Assembly (NCBI GenBank): GCA_964399555.1
Contig: CAYNRM010000002.1
Coordinates: 4,071-30,859 of the forward strand
Length of the DNA: 26,789 bases
Source: an uncultured Gammaproteobacteria bacterium
Lineage (GTDB): Bacteria; Patescibacteriota; Microgenomatia; Daviesbacterales; UBA10151
Reading direction: 5' to 3'
Both the position numbers and the translations under genes were made by a program. Each line of letters starts with the position of its first letter. Position 1 is the stretch's first letter. Under the pieces are notes generated by a model. That model saw only the letters and a program-made list of their open reading frames with translations, was not told the origin of the DNA and did not search any database. This document shows positions 3,745 to 20,517 of the stretch, piece by piece.

Positions 3745-4626
3745 ATGAATAAATTTACCTCAAAGAATCCTAAATTCGAACATTTAAGAAAAAAGTGGAT
3801 CGCCCGTCACGCTGAAACTTCCCAAAATCTAATCGACAAACACGCCCGTCACATCGCAGCAACTTCTCTGGGGGGTCTAATGCTCCTATCAACTCCTGGA
3901 TTGGCAATGTCCACACTGCCCGCCGAAATTGCCCCAATCGAACAAACTAAGATCTCAGCCTCCTCAAGTAACAATGCTTTACTGGCCTCGGAGCTTATAG
4001 ACAAGTTACCAAATCAAGTCGAAAAGTTAAACTCCTCTCAGGATGATGCAATTGCCGCTCTAATAAAAAAAGATTTAAACATTGAAGTTAAAGCAGAAAT
4101 TGATAACAAAAGATTAAATCGAACTTACGGTGTTATTGGTGGTGAACAACATCTCTATAGATACCCTGGTGACACCGTCCACAATCATGCCAGGGATGCC
4201 CAGGATTGGGCTATGTATGGAGGATCGGGAATTGCCCCAGGTCTCGGCGCTTACGGTTATTTCACACCCTCTAAAGAATCAATGACTGAAGAAATCGAAA
4301 TGCGGGAAAGATACTATCTAGCCGTCCAAACTTTCCTTTCACCGGGTTTCTCAGAAAGAGTTGGCGAATATCGCGATTTCTACCGCTTTAGAAAAATGCT
4401 GGTAGTCAATCCTAAAACCGGTCAGGCTGTCGTCGCTGTGATAGGGGATGCTGGACCCGCCCAATGGACTGGCAAGCACTTAGGTGGCAGTCCCGAAGTA
4501 ATGCACGAATTAGGTTACGCCGGAGGCCCCAGAAAAGGCCCAGTGTTATACTACTTTGTTGACGATCCTGAAAATAAAGTACCTTTAGGTCCAATAAAGT
4601 TAATAGAGAAGTTAGCGGAATCATAA
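3745..4626 (+). CDS. Membrane-anchored or exported protein with a C-terminal RlpA-like double-psi beta-barrel
   Basis: Hydrophobic segment IAATSLGGLMLLSTPGLAMS. The C-terminal MLVVNPKTGQAVVAVIGDAGP..GGSPEVMHELG resembles the RlpA DPBB pattern VxN..NG+SVVV+InDRGP..DLS..AA..LG. Confidence 0.55.
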   Translation: MNKFTSKNPKFEHLRKKWIARHAETSQNLIDKHARHIAATSLGGLMLLSTPGLAMSTLPAEIAPIEQTKISASSSNNALLASELIDKLPNQVEKLNSSQDDAIAALIKKDLNIEVKAEIDNKRLNRTYGVIGGEQHLYRYPGDTVHNHARDAQDWAMYGGSGIAPGLGAYGYFTPSKESMTEEIEMRERYYLAVQTFLSPGFSERVGEYRDFYRFRKMLVVNPKTGQAVVAVIGDAGPAQWTGKHLGGSPEVMHELGYAGGPRKGPVLYYFVDDPENKVPLGPIKLIEKLAES

Positions 4627-10088: not shown

Positions 10089-11684
10089 ATGACTAAAGTT
10101 TGGAAAATCAAAGAAAAACTCTCTGAAGACACAATAGAGCAGCTACTCATCAATCGCGGTATAAACTCAGAGGAAGAGAAAGAAAAATTTTTTAACCCTA
10201 AGATTGAAAACTACAAAAAAGAATTGGAAATTCCCGGAATTGAAAGAAGTCTAAAAAGAATTCAAAAAGCAATTGAAACAGGAGAGCAAATTGTAGTTTT
10301 TGGTGATTACGATGTTGATGGAGTTACCGCCTCAGCAATCTTATACAAAGCGCTAACTTCCCTCGGCGCTAAAGTCATGCCCTACATTCCTCACAGGGAA
10401 AGGGAAGGTTACGGCTTATCCAAATTAGGCCTCGAATTCGCCCGGGACTCGGGCGCAACCGTTGTTATAACTGTAGATAACGGAATCGTCGCTATAGAAC
10501 AGGCAAAGTTTGCTAAAGAAATTGGACTGGATCTAATAATCACCGACCATCATACTCTGAGTAGCGAAAAGCCAGACGCTTACTCAATCGTTCACTCCAC
10601 TAAAATGTGCGGAGCAGCTGTAGCCTGGTGCTTAATCCGCAGTGTTATAAAAGAAGATTTGGCTCAGGAACTACTACAGTTCGTAGCAGTTGCTACTATC
10701 GCCGACATGATGCCTCTAATCGGTCTAAACAGAGCATTCGTAACAGAAGGCACAAAAGTTCTAAACAAAACCAAGAATCTGGGATTTCTGGCGTTATTTG
10801 CTGAGTGCCGCCTGGAAAGAGGTGAGTTGAAGTCTTTCGATATCGGGCACGTTATCGCTCCCAGAATTAACGCCATCGGCAGGCTTGAGCACGCCATAGA
10901 TGCGCTAAGACTTTTATGCACCAAAGATCCAGTCAAAGCCAGAAGACTGGCCAGGCTCTTAAACGACACAAACGTCAGGCGTCAGGATATGACTTTAGAA
11001 GCGTACACTCAGGCAGTCAAAATGGCTGAACAAAATATTGATAAAAAAATTCAGGTTCTCTACTCAAAAGATTGGCACCAGGGAATAATCGGCTTAATCG
11101 CTGGGAGAATCACTGAACAATACGCACTCCCTACTATAGCGATCTCGGTAGGTGAAACAATTTCCAAAGGTTCAGCCAGAAGCATAAACGGTATAAACAT
11201 AACGGAGGTTTTAAGAAGCTGTGCAGACAATTTAATAGACGTCGGAGGCCATGCCGGAGCAGCCGGATTTAGTGTGGAAACTAAAAAAATTGAAGTTCTA
11301 AAAGCAAAGCTCGAAGCCGCTGTATCCAAAATATCAACTGAAGCATTTGGAAAATTTTTAGACATCGAAGCAGAAATCCCCATTTCTAAACTAACAAAAA
11401 CATTAGCCAAAAAACTTGAAGACTTTGAACCCTTCGGCCTGCAAAACCCCAGACCGGTATTCGCCAGTTTTAATTTAAAGTCATCAGACACAAGAACACT
11501 TAGCGCCGGCAAGCATCTGAAATTCAAAGCTGACGGAATAGATGCAATTGCTTTTAGCATGGGAGAACTTGAATCGTTTATCCAATCAGGCCAGCTGCTG
11601 AACTTGGCTTACAACCTGGAAATAAATAAATTCAACGGCAATGAAAATCTTCAATTTAAAGTTAAAGATATTCAGCTTAATTAA
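10089..11684 (+). CDS. recJ: Single-stranded DNA-specific exonuclease RecJ
   Basis: GDYDVDG, ITVDNG, ITDHH, ATIADMMPL, APRINAIGRL, KGSARS, GGHAGAAG, PFGLQNPRP, HLKF. Confidence 0.97.
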   Translation: MTKVWKIKEKLSEDTIEQLLINRGINSEEEKEKFFNPKIENYKKELEIPGIERSLKRIQKAIETGEQIVVFGDYDVDGVTASAILYKALTSLGAKVMPYIPHREREGYGLSKLGLEFARDSGATVVITVDNGIVAIEQAKFAKEIGLDLIITDHHTLSSEKPDAYSIVHSTKMCGAAVAWCLIRSVIKEDLAQELLQFVAVATIADMMPLIGLNRAFVTEGTKVLNKTKNLGFLALFAECRLERGELKSFDIGHVIAPRINAIGRLEHAIDALRLLCTKDPVKARRLARLLNDTNVRRQDMTLEAYTQAVKMAEQNIDKKIQVLYSKDWHQGIIGLIAGRITEQYALPTIAISVGETISKGSARSINGINITEVLRSCADNLIDVGGHAGAAGFSVETKKIEVLKAKLEAAVSKISTEAFGKFLDIEAEIPISKLTKTLAKKLEDFEPFGLQNPRPVFASFNLKSSDTRTLSAGKHLKFKADGIDAIAFSMGELESFIQSGQLLNLAYNLEINKFNGNENLQFKVKDIQLN

Positions 11685-11728
11685 ATCAGCTGGAAGAGGA
11701 GATTATGTGCGTTTAGTATACATACGAC

Positions 11729-11756
11729 TGGACATTAGCTGATTAAGTGATATACT
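11729..11756 (+). promoter_or_regulatory. Putative promoter of the aro leader and operon
   Basis: TGGACA (11729-11734), 16-nt spacer, extended -10 TGaTATACT (11748-11756). The predicted TSS is about 11763. Confidence 0.6.
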
Positions 11757-11766
11757 TATTTAAGTA

Positions 11767-11832
11767 ATGAAGAAACATTCAAATTGGTTTAGCTTTACAT
11801 ATTTTTACTTCCGAAAGGAGGAGGCCTCCTAG
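11767..11832 (+). CDS. Aromatic amino acid attenuation leader peptide MKKHSNWFSFTYFYFRKEEAS
   Basis: ATG 11767 to TAG 11832. Codons 7-15 are TGG TTT AGC TTT ACA TAT TTT TAC TTC (1 Trp, 4 Phe, 2 Tyr), directly upstream of a terminator and the aro operon. Confidence 0.85.
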   Translation: MKKHSNWFSFTYFYFRKEEAS

Positions 11833-11867
11833 TATCCTAAAAGGATATTAGTGAGAATCAGGCCTCC
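11808..11867 (+). promoter_or_regulatory. Attenuator alternative structures: GNRA protector/pause hairpin and antiterminator
   Basis: cttcc-GAAA-ggagg (11808-11821). Antiterminator: ggaggcct (11820-11827) is perfectly complementary to aggcctcc (11860-11867) and encloses the hairpin ctagtatcct-aaa-aggatattag (11829-11851). Confidence 0.75.
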
Positions 11868-11886
11868 CAAATGGGAGGTTTTTTTT
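11861..11886 (+). terminator. Intrinsic (attenuator) terminator
   Basis: Stem cctccc (11863-11868) / gggagg (11873-11878), loop aaat, followed by 8 T (11879-11886). Confidence 0.88.
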
Positions 11887-12754
11887 GTCGAAAACTATGA
11901 TAAATATAACAAAATTAACATCGGATAAAATAATAATTGCTGGTCCCTGTGCTGCTGAAACGCGCGAGCAGGTTCTTGAAAGCGCTAAGCAAGCCAAAAA
12001 GCGTGGAGTAAAAATCCTAAGAGCCTCCCTCTGGAAACCCAGGACTGAGCCCGGATTTGATGGTGTAAAAGAGAAAGGTATTGAGTGGCTGGTTGAGGTC
12101 GCAAAAATGGGATTAACCCCAGGAACAGAAGTTCTAAATGCTAGAAACACTAAAGCTGTTTTAACTGCTATTGCTAAAAATGTCGAAAACCCTTCAGCCC
12201 TAATCTGGATAGGTGCCCGAAACCAAAATCATGACGAACAAGTCGCAATTGTTAAAGCAGTAAAAAAATACCCTTGGGCGCGCTTCATGTTTAAAAACCA
12301 ACCATGGAGACACGAAAAGCATTGGAGGGGAATATTAAAACATGTGCTTTCAACAAAAATTGGTAAAGACAAGATCTTTCTCTCTCACCGGGGATTTGAC
12401 CCAGGAACGGATGAGCCCCGCGACCCAAAAGAATTAAGGAACTTCCCTGATTACCAAATGGCAATGCGCGTTAAAACCGAAGAGGATGTCCAAATGATTA
12501 TCGATCCTTCCCATATGGGTGGCACTGTCGACAATGTCATAAGGATTTCTAAAGAAGCCATGCGCCACAAAGAAGCAGGTACTTCCTTTGACGGTTTCAT
12601 TTTTGAAATTCATCCAAATCCAACTATCGCCTGGACCGATGCTAAGCAGCAGTTAACATGGGAGCAGTTTGATGAGTTAATGGATGAATATCAAAATCTC
12701 CATAAAGAACCACAAGTCAAAACTAAATCTGCTCAAACTCAAGCCTCATTCTGA
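11885..12754 (+). CDS. aroF: DAHP synthase type I-beta, catalytic barrel only
   Basis: AGPC, WKPRT, EV, WIGAR, FKN, HRGF, RN, DPSH, EIHP..AWTD: all four metal ligands (C, H, E, D) and KPRT are present. The start is TTG 11885 or ATG 11897. Confidence 0.88.
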   Translation: MSKTMINITKLTSDKIIIAGPCAAETREQVLESAKQAKKRGVKILRASLWKPRTEPGFDGVKEKGIEWLVEVAKMGLTPGTEVLNARNTKAVLTAIAKNVENPSALIWIGARNQNHDEQVAIVKAVKKYPWARFMFKNQPWRHEKHWRGILKHVLSTKIGKDKIFLSHRGFDPGTDEPRDPKELRNFPDYQMAMRVKTEEDVQMIIDPSHMGGTVDNVIRISKEAMRHKEAGTSFDGFIFEIHPNPTIAWTDAKQQLTWEQFDELMDEYQNLHKEPQVKTKSAQTQASF

Positions 12755-14379
12755 TGTTAGATCAAAATTCAAAGATCCATATAGTTGGAGGAACAGGAGC
12801 AATGGGGACATGGCTCCGGATTTTTCTGGAGTCACTTAATTTTTCCGTTTCTGTTAGTGATGAAAATAAAGGGGAAGAAGAGATTGAAAAAGCAGACATT
12901 GTTTTTATCTCGGTGCCGATTAATCTTGCTCCGCAAATAATCTTACAAACTGCTCCCAAAACTAAACATGAGTGTTTAATGGTCGACCTCTCCTCAATAA
13001 AGTCGGAGACCAAAAAAGCTTTAGAAAATTGCGGCAGATCATCTCTGTCCTTGCACTTTCTTTTCGGGCCAACGCTCAGTTCTATCCAAAATCAAAAAAT
13101 TATTTCTGAAAAGTTCAAGCAGTCAAAAATTGCTGACGATCTGGTACAAGTTTTTAAAAAGGAAGGCGCTCAAATTATAGAATTACCCAGCGATCTTCAT
13201 GATCTAACAATGGCTCACATTCAATCCCTGACTCATTTTATAAATCTTTCCCTAGCTCAAATTCTTATAAAAAACAAAATCGGAATTTCCGGTCAAATCT
13301 CAACACCCGTTTTCTTATCACAACTTTCCGCAACCCTAAGAGTTCTTTCTCAAAGTCCAAAGTTGTTAAGTGAAATCCAAACCCAAAATCCTGAATTTAT
13401 CAATGTAGTCGAGGATTATCTGGAGATTCAAAAAGATCTGGTTAAAAAGATTAAAACCGGTGATGTTAAAGAAATAGAAAAACAATATGCAGGCTTGAGA
13501 GAAAATTTAGAATCTATTTCCGGAACTACTGACAATAGCAAAAGAGTAGTTGAAGATAAAGTATTAGAACCCAAGAATCTTAAAGTCGGTTTCTTAGGTC
13601 CAAAAGGCACGTTCTCAAGTCAGGCAGTTTTGAAATTATTTAATGAAACAGACAATCGGCTTATTGCCTGTAAAAGTATCTACGATTTATTCGATAGCCT
13701 AGATAAAAATCTTGTTGATGTCATAGTGGCCCCCGCCGAAAATACTACTGAAGGAACTGTGAGAGAAACACTTGACTACTTATTTGATCACAAATTTAAG
13801 ATTATTGGAAAAATTGATTTACCAGTTTCTCAATGTCTTCTATCAAAGGAATCAGATTTGAAAAATATAACTAAAATAATCTCTCACCCTCAGGCGCTTA
13901 ACCAGTCGAGAAAATTTCTCGAAGATAATCTGCCCGATGCCATACTCGAGACAAGTGCCTCAACAGTTGCTTCAACAGAAGAGTTAGATAAAAAAGGGGT
14001 AGCCATAATCGGTTCAGAACTTGCAGCGAAGATTTATAAATTGAACACCCTAAAAAAAGATATCCAGGGTTATGACCAAAATACGACTCGATTTAATATA
14101 ATTGCCAAACGCGACATGCTTAATCTGCCGGGCAGAAGTAAAAGTCTTCTTTTCCTGTCTGTTTTTAACCGGGTTGGTGTTTTAAGAGACATCTTATCCG
14201 TTTTTGCTGACCTCTCAATAAATTTGAATAAAATTGAGTCGCGACCGTCAGGAGAAAAGCATTGGGACTATTACTTTTATATAGAGGTTGAGTCAACCGA
14301 TGAACATCCTAAATTCTTGCAAGCTCTTGATATCCTTAAACAGTATTGTCCTCAGATAATAGTTTTAGGTAAACTCTAA
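12754..14379 (+). CDS. tyrA-pheA: Fused prephenate dehydrogenase (TyrA) and prephenate dehydratase with ACT domain (PheA)
   Basis: N-half: IVGGTGAMG Rossmann motif, DLSSIK, SLHFLFGP, HDLTMAHIQSLTH. C-half: FLGPKGTFS, ENTTEGTV, SHPQAL, NTTRF, NKIESRP, YYFYIE. TGATG overlap with the upstream gene. Confidence 0.92.
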   Translation: MLDQNSKIHIVGGTGAMGTWLRIFLESLNFSVSVSDENKGEEEIEKADIVFISVPINLAPQIILQTAPKTKHECLMVDLSSIKSETKKALENCGRSSLSLHFLFGPTLSSIQNQKIISEKFKQSKIADDLVQVFKKEGAQIIELPSDLHDLTMAHIQSLTHFINLSLAQILIKNKIGISGQISTPVFLSQLSATLRVLSQSPKLLSEIQTQNPEFINVVEDYLEIQKDLVKKIKTGDVKEIEKQYAGLRENLESISGTTDNSKRVVEDKVLEPKNLKVGFLGPKGTFSSQAVLKLFNETDNRLIACKSIYDLFDSLDKNLVDVIVAPAENTTEGTVRETLDYLFDHKFKIIGKIDLPVSQCLLSKESDLKNITKIISHPQALNQSRKFLEDNLPDAILETSASTVASTEELDKKGVAIIGSELAAKIYKLNTLKKDIQGYDQNTTRFNIIAKRDMLNLPGRSKSLLFLSVFNRVGVLRDILSVFADLSINLNKIESRPSGEKHWDYYFYIEVESTDEHPKFLQALDILKQYCPQIIVLGKL

Positions 14380-14381
14380 AC

Positions 14382-14660
14382 ATGGATAAATTGAAAATGT
14401 TGCGAAAACTTATCGATGACATAGATAACCAACTCCTGGATCTAGTAAAAAGCCGGATGGATGTGGTTGTCGAAATTGGCAATGTAAAAACAGAAAATAA
14501 TGTGGAAGTCGTAGATAAAGAAAGGGAAGAGCAAATATATGTTCGGTTACTTGCTAAAGCAAAAGAGAAAGGTGTAAAACCCGAGGTTGTAAAAAAAGTT
14601 TGGAAGTCTTTACTAGAAATTTCATATGAGATTGAAGGAGGCAAAAATGGAAAAAGTTAA
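14382..14660 (+). CDS. aroQ: Monofunctional chorismate mutase (AroQ, type II)
   Basis: LRKLIDDIDNQLLDLVKSRMDVVVEIGNVK..VVDKEREEQI is the AroQ pattern. Confidence 0.92.
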   Translation: MDKLKMLRKLIDDIDNQLLDLVKSRMDVVVEIGNVKTENNVEVVDKEREEQIYVRLLAKAKEKGVKPEVVKKVWKSLLEISYEIEGGKNGKS

Positions 14661-15687
14661 TGTGTTAAACAAATATCAGGTATATATTGGTTCTGGGTTA
14701 TTAGGAAATATTTACTCAATTATTGATACTAATGGTTTCAGTAAAATTATTGTAATCACTGATGATAAAATCCCCTCTAATTATCTTTCAGAATTTGAGA
14801 AGATCTCTATTTCGTCCGGAGAAGAGAATAAAACAATAGAAACAGTCAAAGAGATCTGGGAGCAAATGTTAAAGCTCGGTTGCGATCGCAAAACTTTAGT
14901 TATTAATTTAGGCGGGGGGGTAATCGGTGATATCGGCGGGTTCGCTGCCAGCTGTTATATGAGAGGAGTAAAATTTCTTCAGATCCCGACAACATTATTA
15001 TCTGCAGTAGACGCCAGTGTTGGAGGCAAGGTCGGGATAGATTTTTCAGGAATAAAAAATCTCATCGGTTCATTCAATCAGCCCATCGGAGTGATAGTCG
15101 ATATAGAGACATTCAATTCATTACCGGATCGGGAATTTATCTCAGGCTTCGGAGAAATAATAAAACACGGTCTTATCGCCGATCCGGATTATTTTAAATT
15201 TGTCACCTCAAAAAAACCTCGTGAATTTTCTCAAGACGAACTAATTGAAATTATAAAAAAATCCTGTGAAATAAAAGCCGCCATAATCTCCGGAGACGAA
15301 AAAGAATCTGGCAGCCGCAAACTGCTTAACTTTGGCCACACCATTGGTCATGCGCTCGAAAGCGCTTCCCTGCAATCACAAAAACCACTACTGCACGGTG
15401 AAGCAGTTGCGATTGGCTCAATTGCTGAAGCTAAAATTTCCTTTGACTTGGGGCTAATCGAAGATAAAGAACTATCTATTATCCAACAAGCCCTGGAAGC
15501 AGCGGGGTTACCGGTAAGTTTCAAAGTTGAAGATATCGATAAAATTATGGAACTAATTTCAAAAGACAAAAAATCTCAGTCTGGTAAAATAAGCTGGACT
15601 TTATTAAATAGTATTGGCTCAGCAGTCATCGATAATCAAGTTGAAAAGAATATTGTTCTTTCCTCGCTTGAATACATTTCAGACTGA
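14647..15687 (+). CDS. aroB: 3-dehydroquinate synthase
   Basis: GEENK, LGGGVIGDIGGF, YMRG, PTTLLSAVDASVGGK, KNLIG, GEIIKHG, LNFGHTIGHALE, HGEAVAIG, DKK. SD gaaggagg precedes ATG 14647. Confidence 0.97.
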   Translation: MEKVNVLNKYQVYIGSGLLGNIYSIIDTNGFSKIIVITDDKIPSNYLSEFEKISISSGEENKTIETVKEIWEQMLKLGCDRKTLVINLGGGVIGDIGGFAASCYMRGVKFLQIPTTLLSAVDASVGGKVGIDFSGIKNLIGSFNQPIGVIVDIETFNSLPDREFISGFGEIIKHGLIADPDYFKFVTSKKPREFSQDELIEIIKKSCEIKAAIISGDEKESGSRKLLNFGHTIGHALESASLQSQKPLLHGEAVAIGSIAEAKISFDLGLIEDKELSIIQQALEAAGLPVSFKVEDIDKIMELISKDKKSQSGKISWTLLNSIGSAVIDNQVEKNIVLSSLEYISD

Positions 15688-15693
15688 TTCTTA

Positions 15694-16971
15694 ATGAACA
15701 AACTACAAATCATTCCCACAAATAATATTTCTGGAGTAGTCGATGTTCCCGGCTCAAAAAGCTATACCAACAGAGCGCTAATTATCGCCTCATTAATTAA
15801 AGGATCAGTCACGATAAAAAATCCTCTAAAATCAGACGATGTCTCGGTTATGATCAAGTGTCTTATAACACTTGGAATTGAAATAAAAGAAAATAGCGAA
15901 AGTATCCAAGTTATTGGAGATATTTCAGAGGTAAAAGATCAGGAATACCAATTAAACGCCCAACTGTCTGGAACTACAATTAGATTCATTCTGGCGCTGT
16001 CCTGCATTATTCCTGGAGTAAAAATAATCAGCGGAGATGATTCCTTAAATAATAGACCTATCGGTGAATTAGCAGGCGCCCTGAAAGATCTAGGAGCGAA
16101 AATCGAGTATTTAAAAAAACCAGGTTACCCACCATTAATCGTAAAATCATCATCACTTAGCCTAAAAGAAACCAGACTCCACGGTGATATTTCAAGTCAA
16201 TTCTTCTCAGCCCTCCTGATGATAGCCCCACTTATCGGCGGTATTAATATCGATGTGATGGGGGTTCAAATCTCAAAGCCTTATGTTGGGATGACCATAG
16301 ATCTTATGAAATATTTTGGAGTCAAAGTTGCGAATACCAACTTTAAAAAATATGTCGTTGAGCCATCACAAGGTTACGTCCTGAAAGATTATGTTGTCGA
16401 GGGTGACTACTCATCAGCTGGTTATTTCCTTGCAGCTGCCGCATTAACTAGTTCAACTCTTAGTCTTAAAAATCTCAACGAGAGTTCAATTCAGGCAGAT
16501 AAGAATTTTATCAATATTCTCAAAGACTTAGGAAGTGAAATTAATTTCCAAGGGTCTTATCTGATTATCAAAGGAGCTGGAGTAAAGCCAATGCGCGTTG
16601 ACATGGAAAACTGTCCTGACCAGGTACAAACATTAGCAGTTATACTGGCTTTCGCCAAAGGAAAATCCGTAATTACCGGTGTCAGATCTTTAAGAATTAA
16701 AGAAACCGAAAGAGTTCTTGCTTTGCAAAATGAATTATCAAAAATGGGAATAAAAACAGAATCAACAATCGACTCACTCACCATTTATGGTGGCAACCCG
16801 AAAGCTTCAGAAGTTAATACTTATAATGACCACCGAATGGCTATGTCGTTTGCCATAGCAGGAGTAGTTCTTCCGGGAATGATTATTAACAATCCTGAAG
16901 TCGTAACTAAAACATTCCCCGATTTCTGGGAAAAATTATCGGGTATTGGAATAAAATCTAATGAAATCTGA
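15694..16971 (+). CDS. aroA: 3-phosphoshikimate 1-carboxyvinyltransferase (EPSP synthase)
   Basis: PGSKSYTNR, SGTTIRF, NRPI, SSQFFSALL, SKPY, EGDYSSA, PD, LRIKETER, DHRMAM, KTFPDFW. Confidence 0.97.
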   Translation: MNKLQIIPTNNISGVVDVPGSKSYTNRALIIASLIKGSVTIKNPLKSDDVSVMIKCLITLGIEIKENSESIQVIGDISEVKDQEYQLNAQLSGTTIRFILALSCIIPGVKIISGDDSLNNRPIGELAGALKDLGAKIEYLKKPGYPPLIVKSSSLSLKETRLHGDISSQFFSALLMIAPLIGGINIDVMGVQISKPYVGMTIDLMKYFGVKVANTNFKKYVVEPSQGYVLKDYVVEGDYSSAGYFLAAAALTSSTLSLKNLNESSIQADKNFINILKDLGSEINFQGSYLIIKGAGVKPMRVDMENCPDQVQTLAVILAFAKGKSVITGVRSLRIKETERVLALQNELSKMGIKTESTIDSLTIYGGNPKASEVNTYNDHRMAMSFAIAGVVLPGMIINNPEVVTKTFPDFWEKLSGIGIKSNEI

Positions 16972-17599
16972 GAACCAAATTTCTACTGTAAACAAAATTT
17001 TCTTGGTCGGCTTTAGAGCCACCGGAAAAACTACGATTGGCAAAATCTTAGCCGAAAAACTGGACTGGTCTTTTTGGGACAGCGATTTCCTGATAACCCA
17101 GGAAGCAGGCCAGGATATTCAGAGCCTCACCAGGGGCGGGATAGACTGGCAAATATTTAGAAAAATTGAAAACCAGGTACTTTATGAATTATCCCGAATG
17201 GAAAACGTAGTTGTTAGTTGTGGAGGAGGAGTTGGTGTAAATGATGTGATAGATGAAATAACAAATAAAACTTTCGGGGACTTAAATAAAGAAATTCTTG
17301 ATAATACTAAAGAAAGCATAGTGATACTGCTCACCTCCAAAGATGAAAGTATTAAGACGAGATTAAAAAGGCAATACAAAAATAAAAAAATTATGCCATT
17401 CCTGAACACTGAAAATGCTAAGATGTCAAAAGACGAAAAAAACCTGGAAGTCTTGATAGAAAAACAAATTGAAGATTCTATGGCTACGTTTCAGGAAAGA
17501 AAATCTTTGTATAAGAGTCTTACAAGTATTATCATCGACACGGATAAAATGCCGCTGGGAAAAACAGCAGAGGAGATTATATCTTATGTCAGAAAATGA
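16961..17599 (+). CDS. aroK: Shikimate kinase (with insertions)
   Basis: P-loop GFRATGKTT, DSD, FRKIE, SCGGG, ERKSLY. Confidence 0.9.
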   Translation: MKSENQISTVNKIFLVGFRATGKTTIGKILAEKLDWSFWDSDFLITQEAGQDIQSLTRGGIDWQIFRKIENQVLYELSRMENVVVSCGGGVGVNDVIDEITNKTFGDLNKEILDNTKESIVILLTSKDESIKTRLKRQYKNKKIMPFLNTENAKMSKDEKNLEVLIEKQIEDSMATFQERKSLYKSLTSIIIDTDKMPLGKTAEEIISYVRK

Positions 17600-18410
17600 A
17601 CAATCAGGATTTAAAGTGTGTTTAATAATGGGTTTTCCTGTAAAAAATTCCAAATCTCCCGCCATGCACATGGCCGCTTATAAAGCGTTAGGAATCGATC
17701 AGGAATTTATATTTCTACCAGCTGAAGTCAAACCCGAGGGATTAGAGGAAGCAATAAATTCTGCCAGAAAATTGAATATAAAAGGCGTCAGTGTCACTAT
17801 GCCCTATAAGCAATCAGTCCTAAAATATCTTGATGTACTTGATGATGATGCGGAAGAAATAGGAGCAGTTAACACTATTGTTAATGACGAAGGAGAACTG
17901 GTAGGTTATAACACTGACTGGGTCGGAGCAATAACAGCTCTTGAAAAGAAAACTAATTTAAACGGTAAAAAGGTCGCAGTAATCGGGGCAGGTGGAGCAG
18001 CCAGAGCAATTGTATTTGGGTTAGTGAAGAAAGAAGCTACAGTTAAAATATTCAATCGCTCAAAAGAAAAAGCTGCTTCCCTTGCGCGAGACTTTGATGT
18101 CGATTTTGCGGGCCTGGAAGAAATAAATCAGCTAAGTCATTTCGACATAATAATAAACGCGACATCCATGGGAATGAATGATGATCAAAGTCCAATTGAT
18201 AAAGAATTAATTAACGAACACCACATAGTATTTGACGTTGTGTATACGCCTAAAGAAACCAGATTGATTAAAGACGCCAAAGAAAAAGGCGCTGAAGTAG
18301 TTTATGGATACGAAATGCTTTTATATCAAGGAGTTGAGCAATTCAAGTTGTATACTAAATACGAAGCCCCAGTAAGGGAAATGGAACAGGCTTTACTTGC
18401 CCAATTATGA
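17586..18410 (+). CDS. aroE: Shikimate dehydrogenase
   Basis: SKSPAMH, VTMPYK, GAVNT, NTD, GAGGAARA, NRS, NATS, DVVY, GYEMLLYQG. ATG 17586 has an aggag SD; the ORF-track start at 17469 is too far upstream. Confidence 0.96.
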   Translation: MSENEQSGFKVCLIMGFPVKNSKSPAMHMAAYKALGIDQEFIFLPAEVKPEGLEEAINSARKLNIKGVSVTMPYKQSVLKYLDVLDDDAEEIGAVNTIVNDEGELVGYNTDWVGAITALEKKTNLNGKKVAVIGAGGAARAIVFGLVKKEATVKIFNRSKEKAASLARDFDVDFAGLEEINQLSHFDIIINATSMGMNDDQSPIDKELINEHHIVFDVVYTPKETRLIKDAKEKGAEVVYGYEMLLYQGVEQFKLYTKYEAPVREMEQALLAQL

Positions 18411-19075
18411 AATATTGTCTTCCCATCATTAATGAGTCCAAAGAAGAGATCTTAAATCTGATCAAAGAAAACCCGGACTATGATTTTTATGAAATCTGGC
18501 TCTCTTATGTTAAAGATCTAGATACCGATTTCCTCAGGAAATTATCGGAGCAATTTAACGGCAAGCTAATCTTCCTTTTTAGAAAGCAAAACTTAGAAAA
18601 ATCTGATTTGGGTAACGAATTAAAAGAAAGAATAATTAAGATACTAGAAAATTCTGATAACTATATGGACTTTGACGTAAATGATGGTTCATGGGGTCTG
18701 GATTTCATAAAAACAAATAACTTAAACAATAAAAAAATTGCCTCATTCCACGATTACCAAAAAACCCCCGATCCCGATTCTCTTACTAAAATTATAAAAG
18801 CTATGGAGAACTATAACCCAGAGATTTTTAAAGTTTCGACATTTTGTAAAACATCTAAGGATGGATTAAAATTATTGGAACTGCTTCTGGATTTAAAAGA
18901 AGAGAATAAGAAATTTATCGTGCTGGGTATGGGAGACGAGGGAAAGATTGTTCGCCTATACGGAGCTCTTTGGGGTAATGAATTAAATTTTGCTCCAATT
19001 AACGAAGAAGATTCTTCAGCTCCAGGACAATTCAGTAAAGAAAAATTAGAGAAAATTTTGGAGGAAATAAAATAG
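18407..19075 (+). CDS. aroD: Type I 3-dehydroquinate dehydratase
   Basis: LFR, SFHDY (catalytic His), FKVST (Schiff-base Lys), GMG..G..VR, APGQ. Confidence 0.88.
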
Positions 19076-20157
19076 TGCCAGGAAATACATTTGGACAATT
19101 ATTTAAAGTAACAACTTTTGGTGAATCGCATGGCGGTTGCGTTGGTTGTGTGATCGACGGCTGTCCTCCGGGAATCGAAATATCAGAAGCAGAAATCCAA
19201 AAAGAAATGGACAGAAGAAAGCCGGGTCAGTCCGCAATAACTTCACCCAGAAAAGAAGAAGACGAAATAAAAATTCTGTCTGGTTATTTTGAAGGAAAAA
19301 CAACTGGCACTCCCATTCTAATGCTTGCCTACAATAAAGACATGCGTCCTGAGGATTATGATCATCTAAAAAACGTCTACCGCCCATCACATGCCGACTT
19401 CACCTACGAACAAAAATACGGTTATCGCGATTTCCGCGGATCTGGCCGTGCCTCAGCACGAGAAACCCTAGCTCGTGTTGCAGCTGGAGCCATCGCCAAA
19501 AAATACCTCAACCAAAGACTGGGAATCAAGATTCTATCCTTTGTTTCTCAAGTCGGGGATATAAAAACTGACATAGATTTTAATTCAGTAACTGAAGAAC
19601 AAATTGAGTCAAATATAGTTAGGTGTCCTGATTCGCAAACCGCCGAAAAGATGATAGCACTAATTGAAAAAATGCGTGACTCAGGGGATTCAATTGGCGG
19701 GGTAATAACTTGCGTCATAAGAAATGTCCCTGCCGGCTTAGGGGAACCAGTCTTTGATAAGCTAAATGCTGACTTAGGGAAAGCCATGCTTTCTATAAAT
19801 GCCGTCAAAGGATTTGAAATCGGCTCAGGCTTCGCCGGCGTTACTAAACCTGGAAGCGAACACAACGACGAGTTCATAATTTCTGATGGAAAAATAAGAA
19901 CTAGGACCAATAATTCAGGCGGCATACTTGGCGGCATCTCAAATGGCGAAACAATCTATTTCCGTGTCGCCTTCAAAAGCGTTTCAACTATTATGAAAAA
20001 ACAAAACACAGTCAACAGAAGTCTGGAAGAAGTTGAACTAGAAGCCTCCGGCCGCCACGACCCCTGCGTCCTCCCCAGAGCAGTCCCCATAGTCGACGCC
20101 ATGTCCGCCCTCACAATAATAGACCACCACCTCCGCCACAAAGCCCAAAATTCTTGA
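19075..20157 (+). CDS. aroC: Chorismate synthase
   Basis: [74 protein letters not shown] start overlapping the aroD TAG. Confidence 0.98.
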
Positions 20158-20166
20158 AATATCAAA

Positions 20167-20195
20167 TTGACATAATAACTGAGCAATCCTATAAT
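20167..20195 (+). promoter_or_regulatory. Perfect-consensus sigma70 promoter, likely leaderless
   Basis: TTGACA (20167-20172), 17 nt, TATAAT (20190-20195), 7 nt, ATG 20203. Confidence 0.8.
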
Positions 20196-20202
20196 TCTTT
20201 TC

Positions 20203-20517
20203 ATGTCTAAAGATAATGAGGTTGTAATTATTAATTTTGTGACTCGCCAAAAACAAGTTCTTGAGAAAAATCCAGTAGAAGAAATTGAAGAGGTTGAGGC
20301 TTCTAATAAAACTACTCACCTCTGCAGAACTGAAAGAAATAGAAATGGAACATATAGCATGCAAGATACAAGATATAACAAGGGGGAATTAATTGGATAT
20401 AGTGGAGGCGCAAGTATTCCTCTGGATGCTTTAATAGATAGGTTACCTCTTATTGGAGATTTAAGACCTGTCATGGGAGCTCTTCAATCTATTAGAGATA
20501 TAAAAATTAAGAAATAA
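20203..20517 (+). CDS. Hypothetical protein (104 aa)
   Basis: The ORF fills the aroC-aspS gap and has its own consensus promoter. No recognised motif. Confidence 0.6.
   Translation: MSKDNEVVIINFVTRQKQVLEKNPVEEIEEVEASNKTTHLCRTERNRNGTYSMQDTRYNKGELIGYSGGASIPLDALIDRLPLIGDLRPVMGALQSIRDIKIKK

Follow-up and report, generated by a model that had tools for sequence, protein, structure and literature searches.

The 26,789-nt stretch of DNA analysed here (the window; contig CAYNRM010000002.1, positions 4,071 to 30,859) contains, immediately before an operon for aromatic amino acid biosynthesis, a compact element (11729-11886, plus strand) that we regard with considerable confidence as a ribosome-mediated leader-peptide transcription attenuator. 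The controlled operon would be DAHPS-tyrA/pheA-CM-aroBAKEDC, where DAHPS is 3-deoxy-D-arabino-heptulosonate 7-phosphate (DAHP) synthase and CM is chorismate mutase. The basis for this assignment is made up of the sequence elements themselves, their conservation, the covariation of the RNA stems, the match between codon run and downstream pathway and a constant geometry. An earlier reading of the bare sequence (the original prediction) had already advanced a leader-peptide attenuator at this place, and the proposal has gained from the recurrence of the element in 54 of the 63 genera of the family, from compensatory changes in its stems, from a fixed geometry of ribosomal dimensions and from in-silico masking of the nascent RNA.

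The element starts with a sigma-70-type promoter (11729-11756) composed of a -35 box TGGACA, a spacer of 16 nt and an extended -10 box TGaTATACT, with 10 of 12 consensus positions matched. The end of the -10 box is followed after 10 nt by the ATG of a short open reading frame (sORF) of 21 sense codons (11767-11832, with the ATG at 11767 and a TAG at 11830-11832), which would encode the leader peptide MKKHSNWFSFTYFYFRKEEAS. Seven aromatic residues are packed into nine codons of this sORF (codons 7-15, 11785-11811), in a candidate regulatory run that reads W7 F8 S9 F10 T11 Y12 F13 Y14 F15 and thus holds one Trp, four Phe and two Tyr codons. A first hairpin, P1 (11808-11821, CUUCC-GAAA-GGAGG, -6.2 kcal/mol), covers the last Phe codon and, with a 3′ arm that is a Shine-Dalgarno (SD)-like GGAGG, the first 2 nt of the 5′ strand of the antiterminator (GGAGGCCT, 11820-11827, codons 18-21), which ends 2 nt upstream of the stop codon. 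This strand is the exact reverse complement of 11860-11867 (AGGCCTCC), so that a helix of 8 bp with six G-C pairs can enclose a second hairpin of nine pairs, P2 (11829-11851, -9.8 kcal/mol), in whose 5′ arm the leader stop codon is found. The 3′ strand of the antiterminator is at the same time the 5′ arm of an intrinsic terminator (11860-11886, -14.0 kcal/mol), with a stem at 11860-11881, a CCUCCC/GGGAGG core and an AAAU loop, followed by eight U residues that end at 11886. The positions first proposed for the sORF, the GAAA hairpin, the second hairpin, the 8-bp pairing and the terminator were each re-found exactly.

An arrangement of this kind could in principle be put together by chance, from an AT-rich sORF and the ordinary terminator of the upstream recJ gene. 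The source genome, a 1.43-Mb metagenome-assembled genome (MAG) of 202 contigs and 88% completeness, has a G+C content of 40%, so that T-rich codons are common in it, and in a simple scan terminator-like sites were about as frequent as in shuffled sequence. However, only three of the 11,056 ATG-initiated sORFs of 10-45 codons in this genome have seven aromatics within nine residues, the leader sORF being among these three, and a terminator of the strict CCUCCC/GGGAGG pattern occurs only six times in the genome, four of them in leader-peptide units. Moreover, a conserved promoter belonging to the unit lies downstream of recJ, and the unit accompanies DAHP synthase or PheA genes where recJ is not a neighbour. 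The fold of 11729-11895 is also unusually stable (z = -3.8, with none of 200 shuffles as stable). Altogether, and given the conservation and the stem covariation described below, which effectively refute it, a fortuitous pairing has practically no chance of being the explanation.

The original prediction had suggested a search for aromatic-rich sORFs followed by a terminator in front of DAHP synthase orthologues, and the unit does recur in relatives, with covariation. This combination lies directly upstream of the DAHP synthase gene in the five same-genus genomes (5/5) and in several other genera too, and the promoter at 11729-11756 is conserved in these five genomes. A covariance model (R1) built from six same-genus leaders in the terminated conformation found matches in 86 of the 96 genomes of the family, covering 54 of its 63 genera and with several matches in many of the genomes, as well as in 18 genomes from other families of the class; beyond the class, it gave only three weak matches in about 143 genomes of the phylum. 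The top matches share a common layout of promoter, ATG, aromatic run, CCTTCC-GNAA-GGAGG, stop codon, hairpin, GCCTCCC...GGGAGG terminator and T-tract. All the relatives have an orthologous sORF. Insertions and deletions within the sORF come in multiples of three, but not so after the stop codon, and together with the conserved frame and stop this speaks indirectly for translation of the sORF. The leader peptide is conserved only at the regulatory codons and at codons overlapping the RNA stems, with a variable N-terminus. In terms of geometry, the start of the last aromatic codon most often precedes the antiterminator strand by 10 nt, 0-5 nt lie between the end of that strand and the stop codon, and about 30 nt separate the stop codon from the terminator across relatives.

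The sequences of P1 and of the G-rich antiterminator strand are more conserved than pairing alone would demand, which could be taken as the mark of another factor (an RNA-binding protein, a T-box-like tRNA or a free 30S subunit) that flips the switch through the CCUUCC-GNAA-GGAGG or GGAGG segment. In this regard, the strand is a perfect SD sequence (AAGGAGG) and the 5′ arm of the terminator mimics the anti-SD CCUCC, which makes 30S binding conceivable. Such a sensor is nevertheless improbable: apart from the Phe leader, no Rfam family, the T-box included, reaches E = 1, the frame, the start and the exact position of the stop of the sORF are all conserved, and the class of the codon run tracks the downstream pathway, which neither a protein nor a 30S sensor would need. 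A dedicated look at positions 11600-12000 gave no Rfam match to the T-box at E up to 10.

Two variations on the layout were observed among the relatives. In 15 of 74 related leaders, including five of the six in the genus, stop and start codons overlap (as TAATG, TGATG or TAGTG), the start being followed by 0-2 further codons and a second stop (loci L012, L014-L017, L019, L023, L027, L029, L035, L037, L039, L070, L079 and L106). The spacing between the GGAGG strand and the overlapping start is that of an SD sequence, and this start could serve for re-initiation or as a 'start-stop' that prolongs the occupancy by the ribosome. A TAATG-NNN-TAA mini-ORF was considered as a core ribosome-parking device and set aside, being found in only 15 of the 74 leaders and absent from the window, which reads TAGTAT at this point. 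The second variation consists of tandem attenuator units on one strand, about 600 bp apart, with distinct codon runs and a short ORF between them (L024, G022:C11 and G006:C15); in L024 (G042:C5), three elements follow each other within about 1.4 kb, the last one upstream of a class I-alpha DAHP synthase.

Covariation supports each of the helixes. In 41 sequences aligned to R1, P1 was 96% paired with compensatory changes in three of its five pairs, P2 was 85% paired with nine of nine, and the terminator was 97% paired with six of nine. Taken together, 18 of these 23 pairs are compensatory. None of 500 shuffles attained the values observed, and all slid controls lay far below them. The antiterminator is absent from R1, and its column counts in the R1 alignment were spoilt by one-base register shifts, for which reason a second model (R2) and duplex energies calculated per sequence were used instead. 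With R2, the antiterminator was 86% paired in 39 sequences with six of eight pairs compensatory, none of 500 shuffles being as high and the slid controls being lower, and 33 doubly changed cells were observed against 10.5 expected. Since the alignments were fitted to the very structures that were counted and the sequences are related, all these shuffle statistics overstate the significance. Within the genus, the antiterminator is 87.5% paired (six sequences), and in most family members the energy of its duplex lies between -9 and -19 kcal/mol, comparable to that of the terminator hairpins.

The strongest argument for the sORFs as sensors, and not as incidental frames, is that the class of their codons tracks the downstream pathway. 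Of the 58 aromatic leaders, at least 28 are found upstream of DAHP synthase or PheA/TyrA genes, in comparison with none of 16 non-aromatic leaders, and the DAHP synthases behind the leaders belong to three architectures (short I-beta, I-beta with an ACT domain, and I-alpha). Leaders with Ile runs precede HMGL/LeuA_dimer synthases, similar to citramalate or isopropylmalate synthases. In the source genome itself (G000), R1 recovered at least four other leaders built on this RNA chassis, two for Thr, one for Leu/Val and one for Ile, and one of them, a Thr leader (…TATTTTTT…), lies upstream of a homoserine dehydrogenase gene. Other siblings have less telling neighbours: the second Thr-run leader precedes small ORFs, the Leu/Val-run leader a 605-aa protein without Pfam match and then a class-III aminotransferase, and the Ile-run leader a 116-aa protein without Pfam match; a mixed Val/Thr leader is also present in this genome. 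The siblings were located at L049 (C27:11780-11899, minus strand), L051 (C131:2883-3045), L050 (C91:153-299 and 4148-4234) and L053 (C95:153-308).

A different use of the unit would be to supply a functional product in the form of its short transcript or peptide, which would act in trans as a small RNA (sRNA) or small hydrophobic peptide, with the position before the operon being regulatory only secondarily or not at all. Having its own strong promoter and terminator, the unit would give an abundant RNA of about 120 nt, and an attenuator-derived sRNA and peptide acting in trans (rnTrpL/peTrpL) are known from Sinorhizobium (PMC7298713 and PMC7968998). Moreover, nothing but small ORFs without known function follows the element in several relatives. 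Against these points stand the peptide, with its varying N-terminus and with conservation confined to the regulatory and stem-overlapping codons, the amino acid class of the codon run, which shifts with the downstream pathway on a shared chassis, and the covariation of the antiterminator, for which a stand-alone sRNA gene has no role. We give a product acting in trans only a slim chance.

The small ORFs deserve a description of their own. Six aromatic leaders without a match to DAHP synthase (L020, L022, L023, L027, L031 and L034) stand before ORFs of 70-110 aa that have no Pfam match, and in L022 and L034 the third downstream ORF has a twin-arginine-like signal (RRGFLAFLGAAAG and RRTFLKLGVLASL). 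The ORFs behind these six leaders may be starvation-induced genes, or else spurious ORFs. For the small ORFs behind many of the leaders, Pfam returned nothing and clustering by BLAST left mostly singletons.

With respect to the amino acids that are sensed, all 58 aromatic leaders have at least three Phe codons (mean 4.3), whereas Tyr is found in 52 of the 58 (mean 1.5) and Trp in 41 (mean 0.7). By our own estimate, the presence of Trp in 41 leaders was judged to be well above expectation for such a rare residue. Phe would be the dominant signal, with the Tyr codons and the one Trp codon probably adding sensitivity, and a sensing of all three aromatics is plausible from the codon content. A narrower version of the same mechanism would have only the charging of Phe-tRNA matter, the Tyr and Trp codons being tolerated as neighbours. 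TTY, TAY and TGG are one-step variants where the run is rich in T, Phe is the only universal regulatory residue (17 of the 58 leaders lack Trp and six lack Tyr), some relatives carry pure Phe runs such as FFFFFF, and the trp operon of the source genome has a separate leader. In the Corynebacterium glutamicum aroR system, according to PMC11802643, limitation of Phe enhanced transcription and the availability of Tyr had no effect. On the other hand, 41 of 58 leaders of only about 22 codons have a Trp codon, usually at the start of the run and by our estimate far more often than so rare a residue would lead one to expect, and 52 of them have Tyr. Furthermore, all three amino acids depend on the chorismate made by the operon, the Tyr branch is part of this operon, and a modelled stall at W7, Y12 or Y14 gives the same antiterminator probability as one at the Phe codons. 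An attenuator responding to Phe alone therefore seems to us rather unlikely, while being the closest contender to one that reads several aromatics. The integration of all three aromatics by a single leader, put forward in the original prediction, is plausible from the codon content, and a mixed aromatic leader before a DAHP synthase gene has a forerunner in C. glutamicum aroR (PMC11802643).

Folding calculations give an idea of how the switch might operate. At equilibrium, the full transcript forms the terminator in every ribosome state, with P1, P2 and the terminator adding up to -30.0 kcal/mol in comparison with -23.6 kcal/mol for the antiterminator plus P2. A thermodynamic switch was consequently dropped, as the terminator wins at equilibrium whatever the position of the ribosome, and because of this preference the switch must be a kinetic one. 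The nascent RNA was then folded under ribosome masks with its end at 11868 or 11872, before the 3′ arm of the terminator exists. Under these conditions, the antiterminator reached a probability of 0.78-0.90 with the A site on any codon up to F15, stalls at W7, Y12 or Y14 behaving like those at Phe codons; the probability falls at R16 and is 0 from K17 to the stop. The outcome is that anticipated for a fold of this region with and without masking footprints, in which a stalled ribosome yields the antiterminator and a ribosome at the stop codon does not, and it applies to nascent RNA. No anti-antiterminator of the 1:2 type known from E. coli trp emerged from the masked folding, a feature that is not universal in the class. 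The GAAA hairpin P1 was tried for this role and ruled out: its overlap with the antiterminator strand, which had been pointed out before, is real, but it amounts to 2 nt and does not block the pairing, and both helixes coexist in the model.

In the mechanism that we propose, transcription would start about 0-3 nt before the leader ATG, and a 70S ribosome would load on the nascent, SD-less 5′ end. When charged Phe-, Tyr- and Trp-tRNAs are available, the ribosome would reach the TAG at 11830 with a footprint covering 11815-11841, masking the antiterminator strand (11820-11827) and melting P2. The terminator (11860-11881) would then fold as it is synthesised and the polymerase would stop within the run of eight U residues, after about 120 nt of transcript. 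Under a shortage of an aromatic aminoacyl-tRNA, the A site would stall within 11785-11811 with the leading edge of the ribosome at or before about 11820, and the free strand 11820-11827 would pair with 11860-11867 as this emerges, in an 8-bp helix over P2 that sequesters the 5′ arm of the terminator and allows read-through into the operon. P2 would bring both strands of the antiterminator together and is possibly a pause hairpin as well, and P1 more likely stabilises the terminated state. A superattenuation as in E. coli trp is not predicted by the model, because the antiterminator forms without any ribosome.

The start of the leader mRNA touches directly on this scheme. A good promoter was recognised for 57 of 74 related leaders, its -10 box being mostly followed after 6-12 nt by the ATG, and an SD-like motif upstream of the leader ATG for only one; the downstream genes at these loci often have strong AAGGAGGTG sites. 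From the closeness of the -10 box to the ATG and the near absence of SD motifs, the leader mRNA appears to be leaderless or nearly so. RNA runs searched for four relatives yielded scraps only, one of which is a 151-nt contig from a wastewater metatranscriptome (X14 record 9, compared with window positions 11781-11885) that comes from a relative similar to G003 and reaches from the opening codons of the leader across the terminator and into the start of the DAHP synthase gene. This contig, the sole trace of the element in an RNA library, fits a read-through transcript that began close to the ATG; as a single record, it could also be DNA carry-over.

Several considerations weigh against the attenuator, in addition to the inflated shuffle statistics mentioned above. 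The sORF has no SD sequence, so that its translation depends on the putative leaderless start, and no RNA run contains the locus, which was met only in DNA runs from microbial mat and freshwater; transcription and its start, 3′ ends at the U-tract, translation of the sORF, stalling and the response in vivo are what we infer from the sequence. The switch, as modelled, depends on co-transcriptional kinetics. Moreover, nascent RNA free of ribosomes forms the antiterminator with a probability of 0.90 and a shortened P1, unlike E. coli trp, because P1 overlaps the strand by only 2 nt, and by this model transcripts reading in from recJ would escape control. Finally, many R1 matches in relatives lie upstream of small ORFs without known function.

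The leader sits between recJ (10089-11684) and the first aro gene. ORF and Pfam analysis delimits the operon behind it to nine tightly packed genes (11897-20157, plus strand) in the order DAHP synthase, TyrA-PheA fusion, chorismate mutase, aroB, aroA, aroK, aroE, aroD and aroC. The DAHP synthase (11897-12754, plus strand, 285 aa) has a catalytic domain only, without a regulatory domain in Pfam, and, as it lacks an allosteric domain, entry into the pathway may be controlled mainly by the attenuator. An in-frame TTG at 11885 lies about 7 nt after the terminator arm GGGAGG, the spacing also seen for the ATG of this gene in several relatives (L019, L029, L035 and L039), where the 3′ arm GGGAGG of the terminator doubles as the SD sequence of the DAHP synthase gene. 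The TTG is not kept in the genus, G003 having an in-frame TAG there and G004 a TTG out of frame, and for this reason ATG 11897 is the likelier start. The second gene (12754-14379) encodes one protein of 541 aa that joins prephenate dehydrogenase (PDH_N/PDH_C), prephenate dehydratase (PDT) and an ACT domain, and chorismate mutase is a separate gene of 92 aa after this fusion. The next strong promoter after the operon is found at 20167-20195, directly after aroC; it is a perfect consensus (TTGACA-17-TATAAT, 12/12; region 20167-20517), and the ATG of an ORF of 104 aa without Pfam match begins 7 nt past it, likely giving another leaderless transcript.

No trp gene is present in the aro operon, trpE and trpC being on another contig. 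The description 'whole aromatic biosynthesis operon' in the original prediction was therefore right for the shikimate and the Phe/Tyr-branch genes and too broad for Trp, whose operon lies elsewhere behind a different leader. That leader, of about 300 nt before trpE (L048, G000:C104:2600-3900, minus strand), has its own promoter, a long hairpin and a T-tract. A T-box-like AAGGUGGCACCGC was noticed in it by eye, although the comparison with Rfam gave no match at E up to 1. As for the organism, the guess of an origin in the candidate phyla radiation (CPR) is confirmed by same-genus relatives titled Candidatus Daviesbacteria or Patescibacteria group, in agreement with the assigned lineage. Two same-genus MAGs (L042 and L043), with the same leader and DAHP synthases 88-89% identical, carry the title 'uncultured Gammaproteobacteria bacterium' and are evidently mislabelled.

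A wider reading, which we hold only tentatively and at less than even chances, is that the aromatic leader exemplifies a modular, Microgenomates-specific attenuator chassis that works as a two-state device without anti-antiterminator and is re-targeted by swapping the codon run. Its parts would be a leaderless start, the P1 hairpin CCUUCC-GNAA-GGAGG, an SD-like antiterminator strand, a P2 holding the stop codon and an anti-SD-like CCUCCC/GGGAGG terminator, and it would serve at least four amino acid classes (aromatic, Thr, Ile and Leu/Val); the 3′ end of the 16S rRNA in the terminating ribosome may help to hold the GGAGG strand. If true, a chassis that also fronts genes without known function could label amino acid starvation genes in the 'dark matter' of CPR genomes, the codon run of the leader being a functional hint for uncharacterised downstream genes in many of them.

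For the biology of these organisms, the attenuator would mean that at least one large CPR lineage (Microgenomates/Daviesbacteria) controls amino acid biosynthesis by classical attenuation. This would imply a tight coupling of transcription and translation and, probably, leaderless initiation by 70S ribosomes in these uncultured bacteria, since a leaderless start would couple the loading of the ribosome to the emergence of the 5′ end. In the open-access literature, we found no report of leader-peptide attenuation in Patescibacteria, CPR, Saccharibacteria or Microgenomates, in line with the original prediction, which knew of no classical attenuation described in CPR. The mechanism is a textbook one, met here in a lineage for which that literature gave no report of it. 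On present sequence comparisons, the traits that seem to set the family apart are the leaderless start, the lack of an anti-antiterminator and the use of one chassis for several amino acids. As an RNA family absent from Rfam, it could enter the database as one or several families.

In the whole window, no match to an Rfam family attains the gathering score of that family. The best match is the E. coli-type Phe_leader (RF01859), which spans the full length of the element and stays below threshold, with 29 bits in comparison with a gathering score of 55 (E 0.004-0.006). The E. coli pheL-pheA system has in common with the window element a Phe-rich leader, a terminator of the CCUCCC/GGGAGG type and an alternative pairing, but many consensus pairs of the RF01859 model are broken when the window leader is aligned to it. 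Moreover, pheL has a start led by an SD sequence, a 1:2 anti-antiterminator, pheA as its only target and Phe as its only regulatory codon, unlike the element in the window. The same logic of codon run, stop codon adjoining strand 2 and competition of 2:3 with 3:4 pairing is found in the E. coli pheM-pheST, trpL, hisL, thrL, leuL and ilvL leaders. These are separate Rfam families, whereas here a single model built on aromatic leaders picks up those for Thr, Ile and Leu/Val as well, and the window element differs from the classical leaders by its putative leaderless start and by having no convincing anti-antiterminator.

The closest functional parallel comes from C. glutamicum, where the aroR leader (Phe-Tyr-Phe) precedes aroF, a DAHP synthase gene (Neshat et al. 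2014, as reported in PMC11802643). The system has, as proposed here, a mixed aromatic leader, ribosome stalling and an operon with DAHP synthase at the entry of the common pathway. The aroR system is actinobacterial and not in Rfam; the window leader has seven aromatic codons including Trp, is positioned to control the shikimate pathway together with the Phe/Tyr branch, and belongs to a family whose chassis serves several amino acids. With respect to the putative leaderless start, the nearest relatives in kind are the polycysteine leaderless sORFs of mycobacteria, which sense their cognate amino acid and control the downstream operon, according to 10.1101/834739 and PMC4633059. As far as these sources are concerned, both systems share an sORF placed, without a leader, at the 5′ end of a polycistronic mRNA, and the window element is distinguished by a clear intrinsic terminator with a covarying antiterminator, by another class of amino acids and by its occurrence in another phylum.

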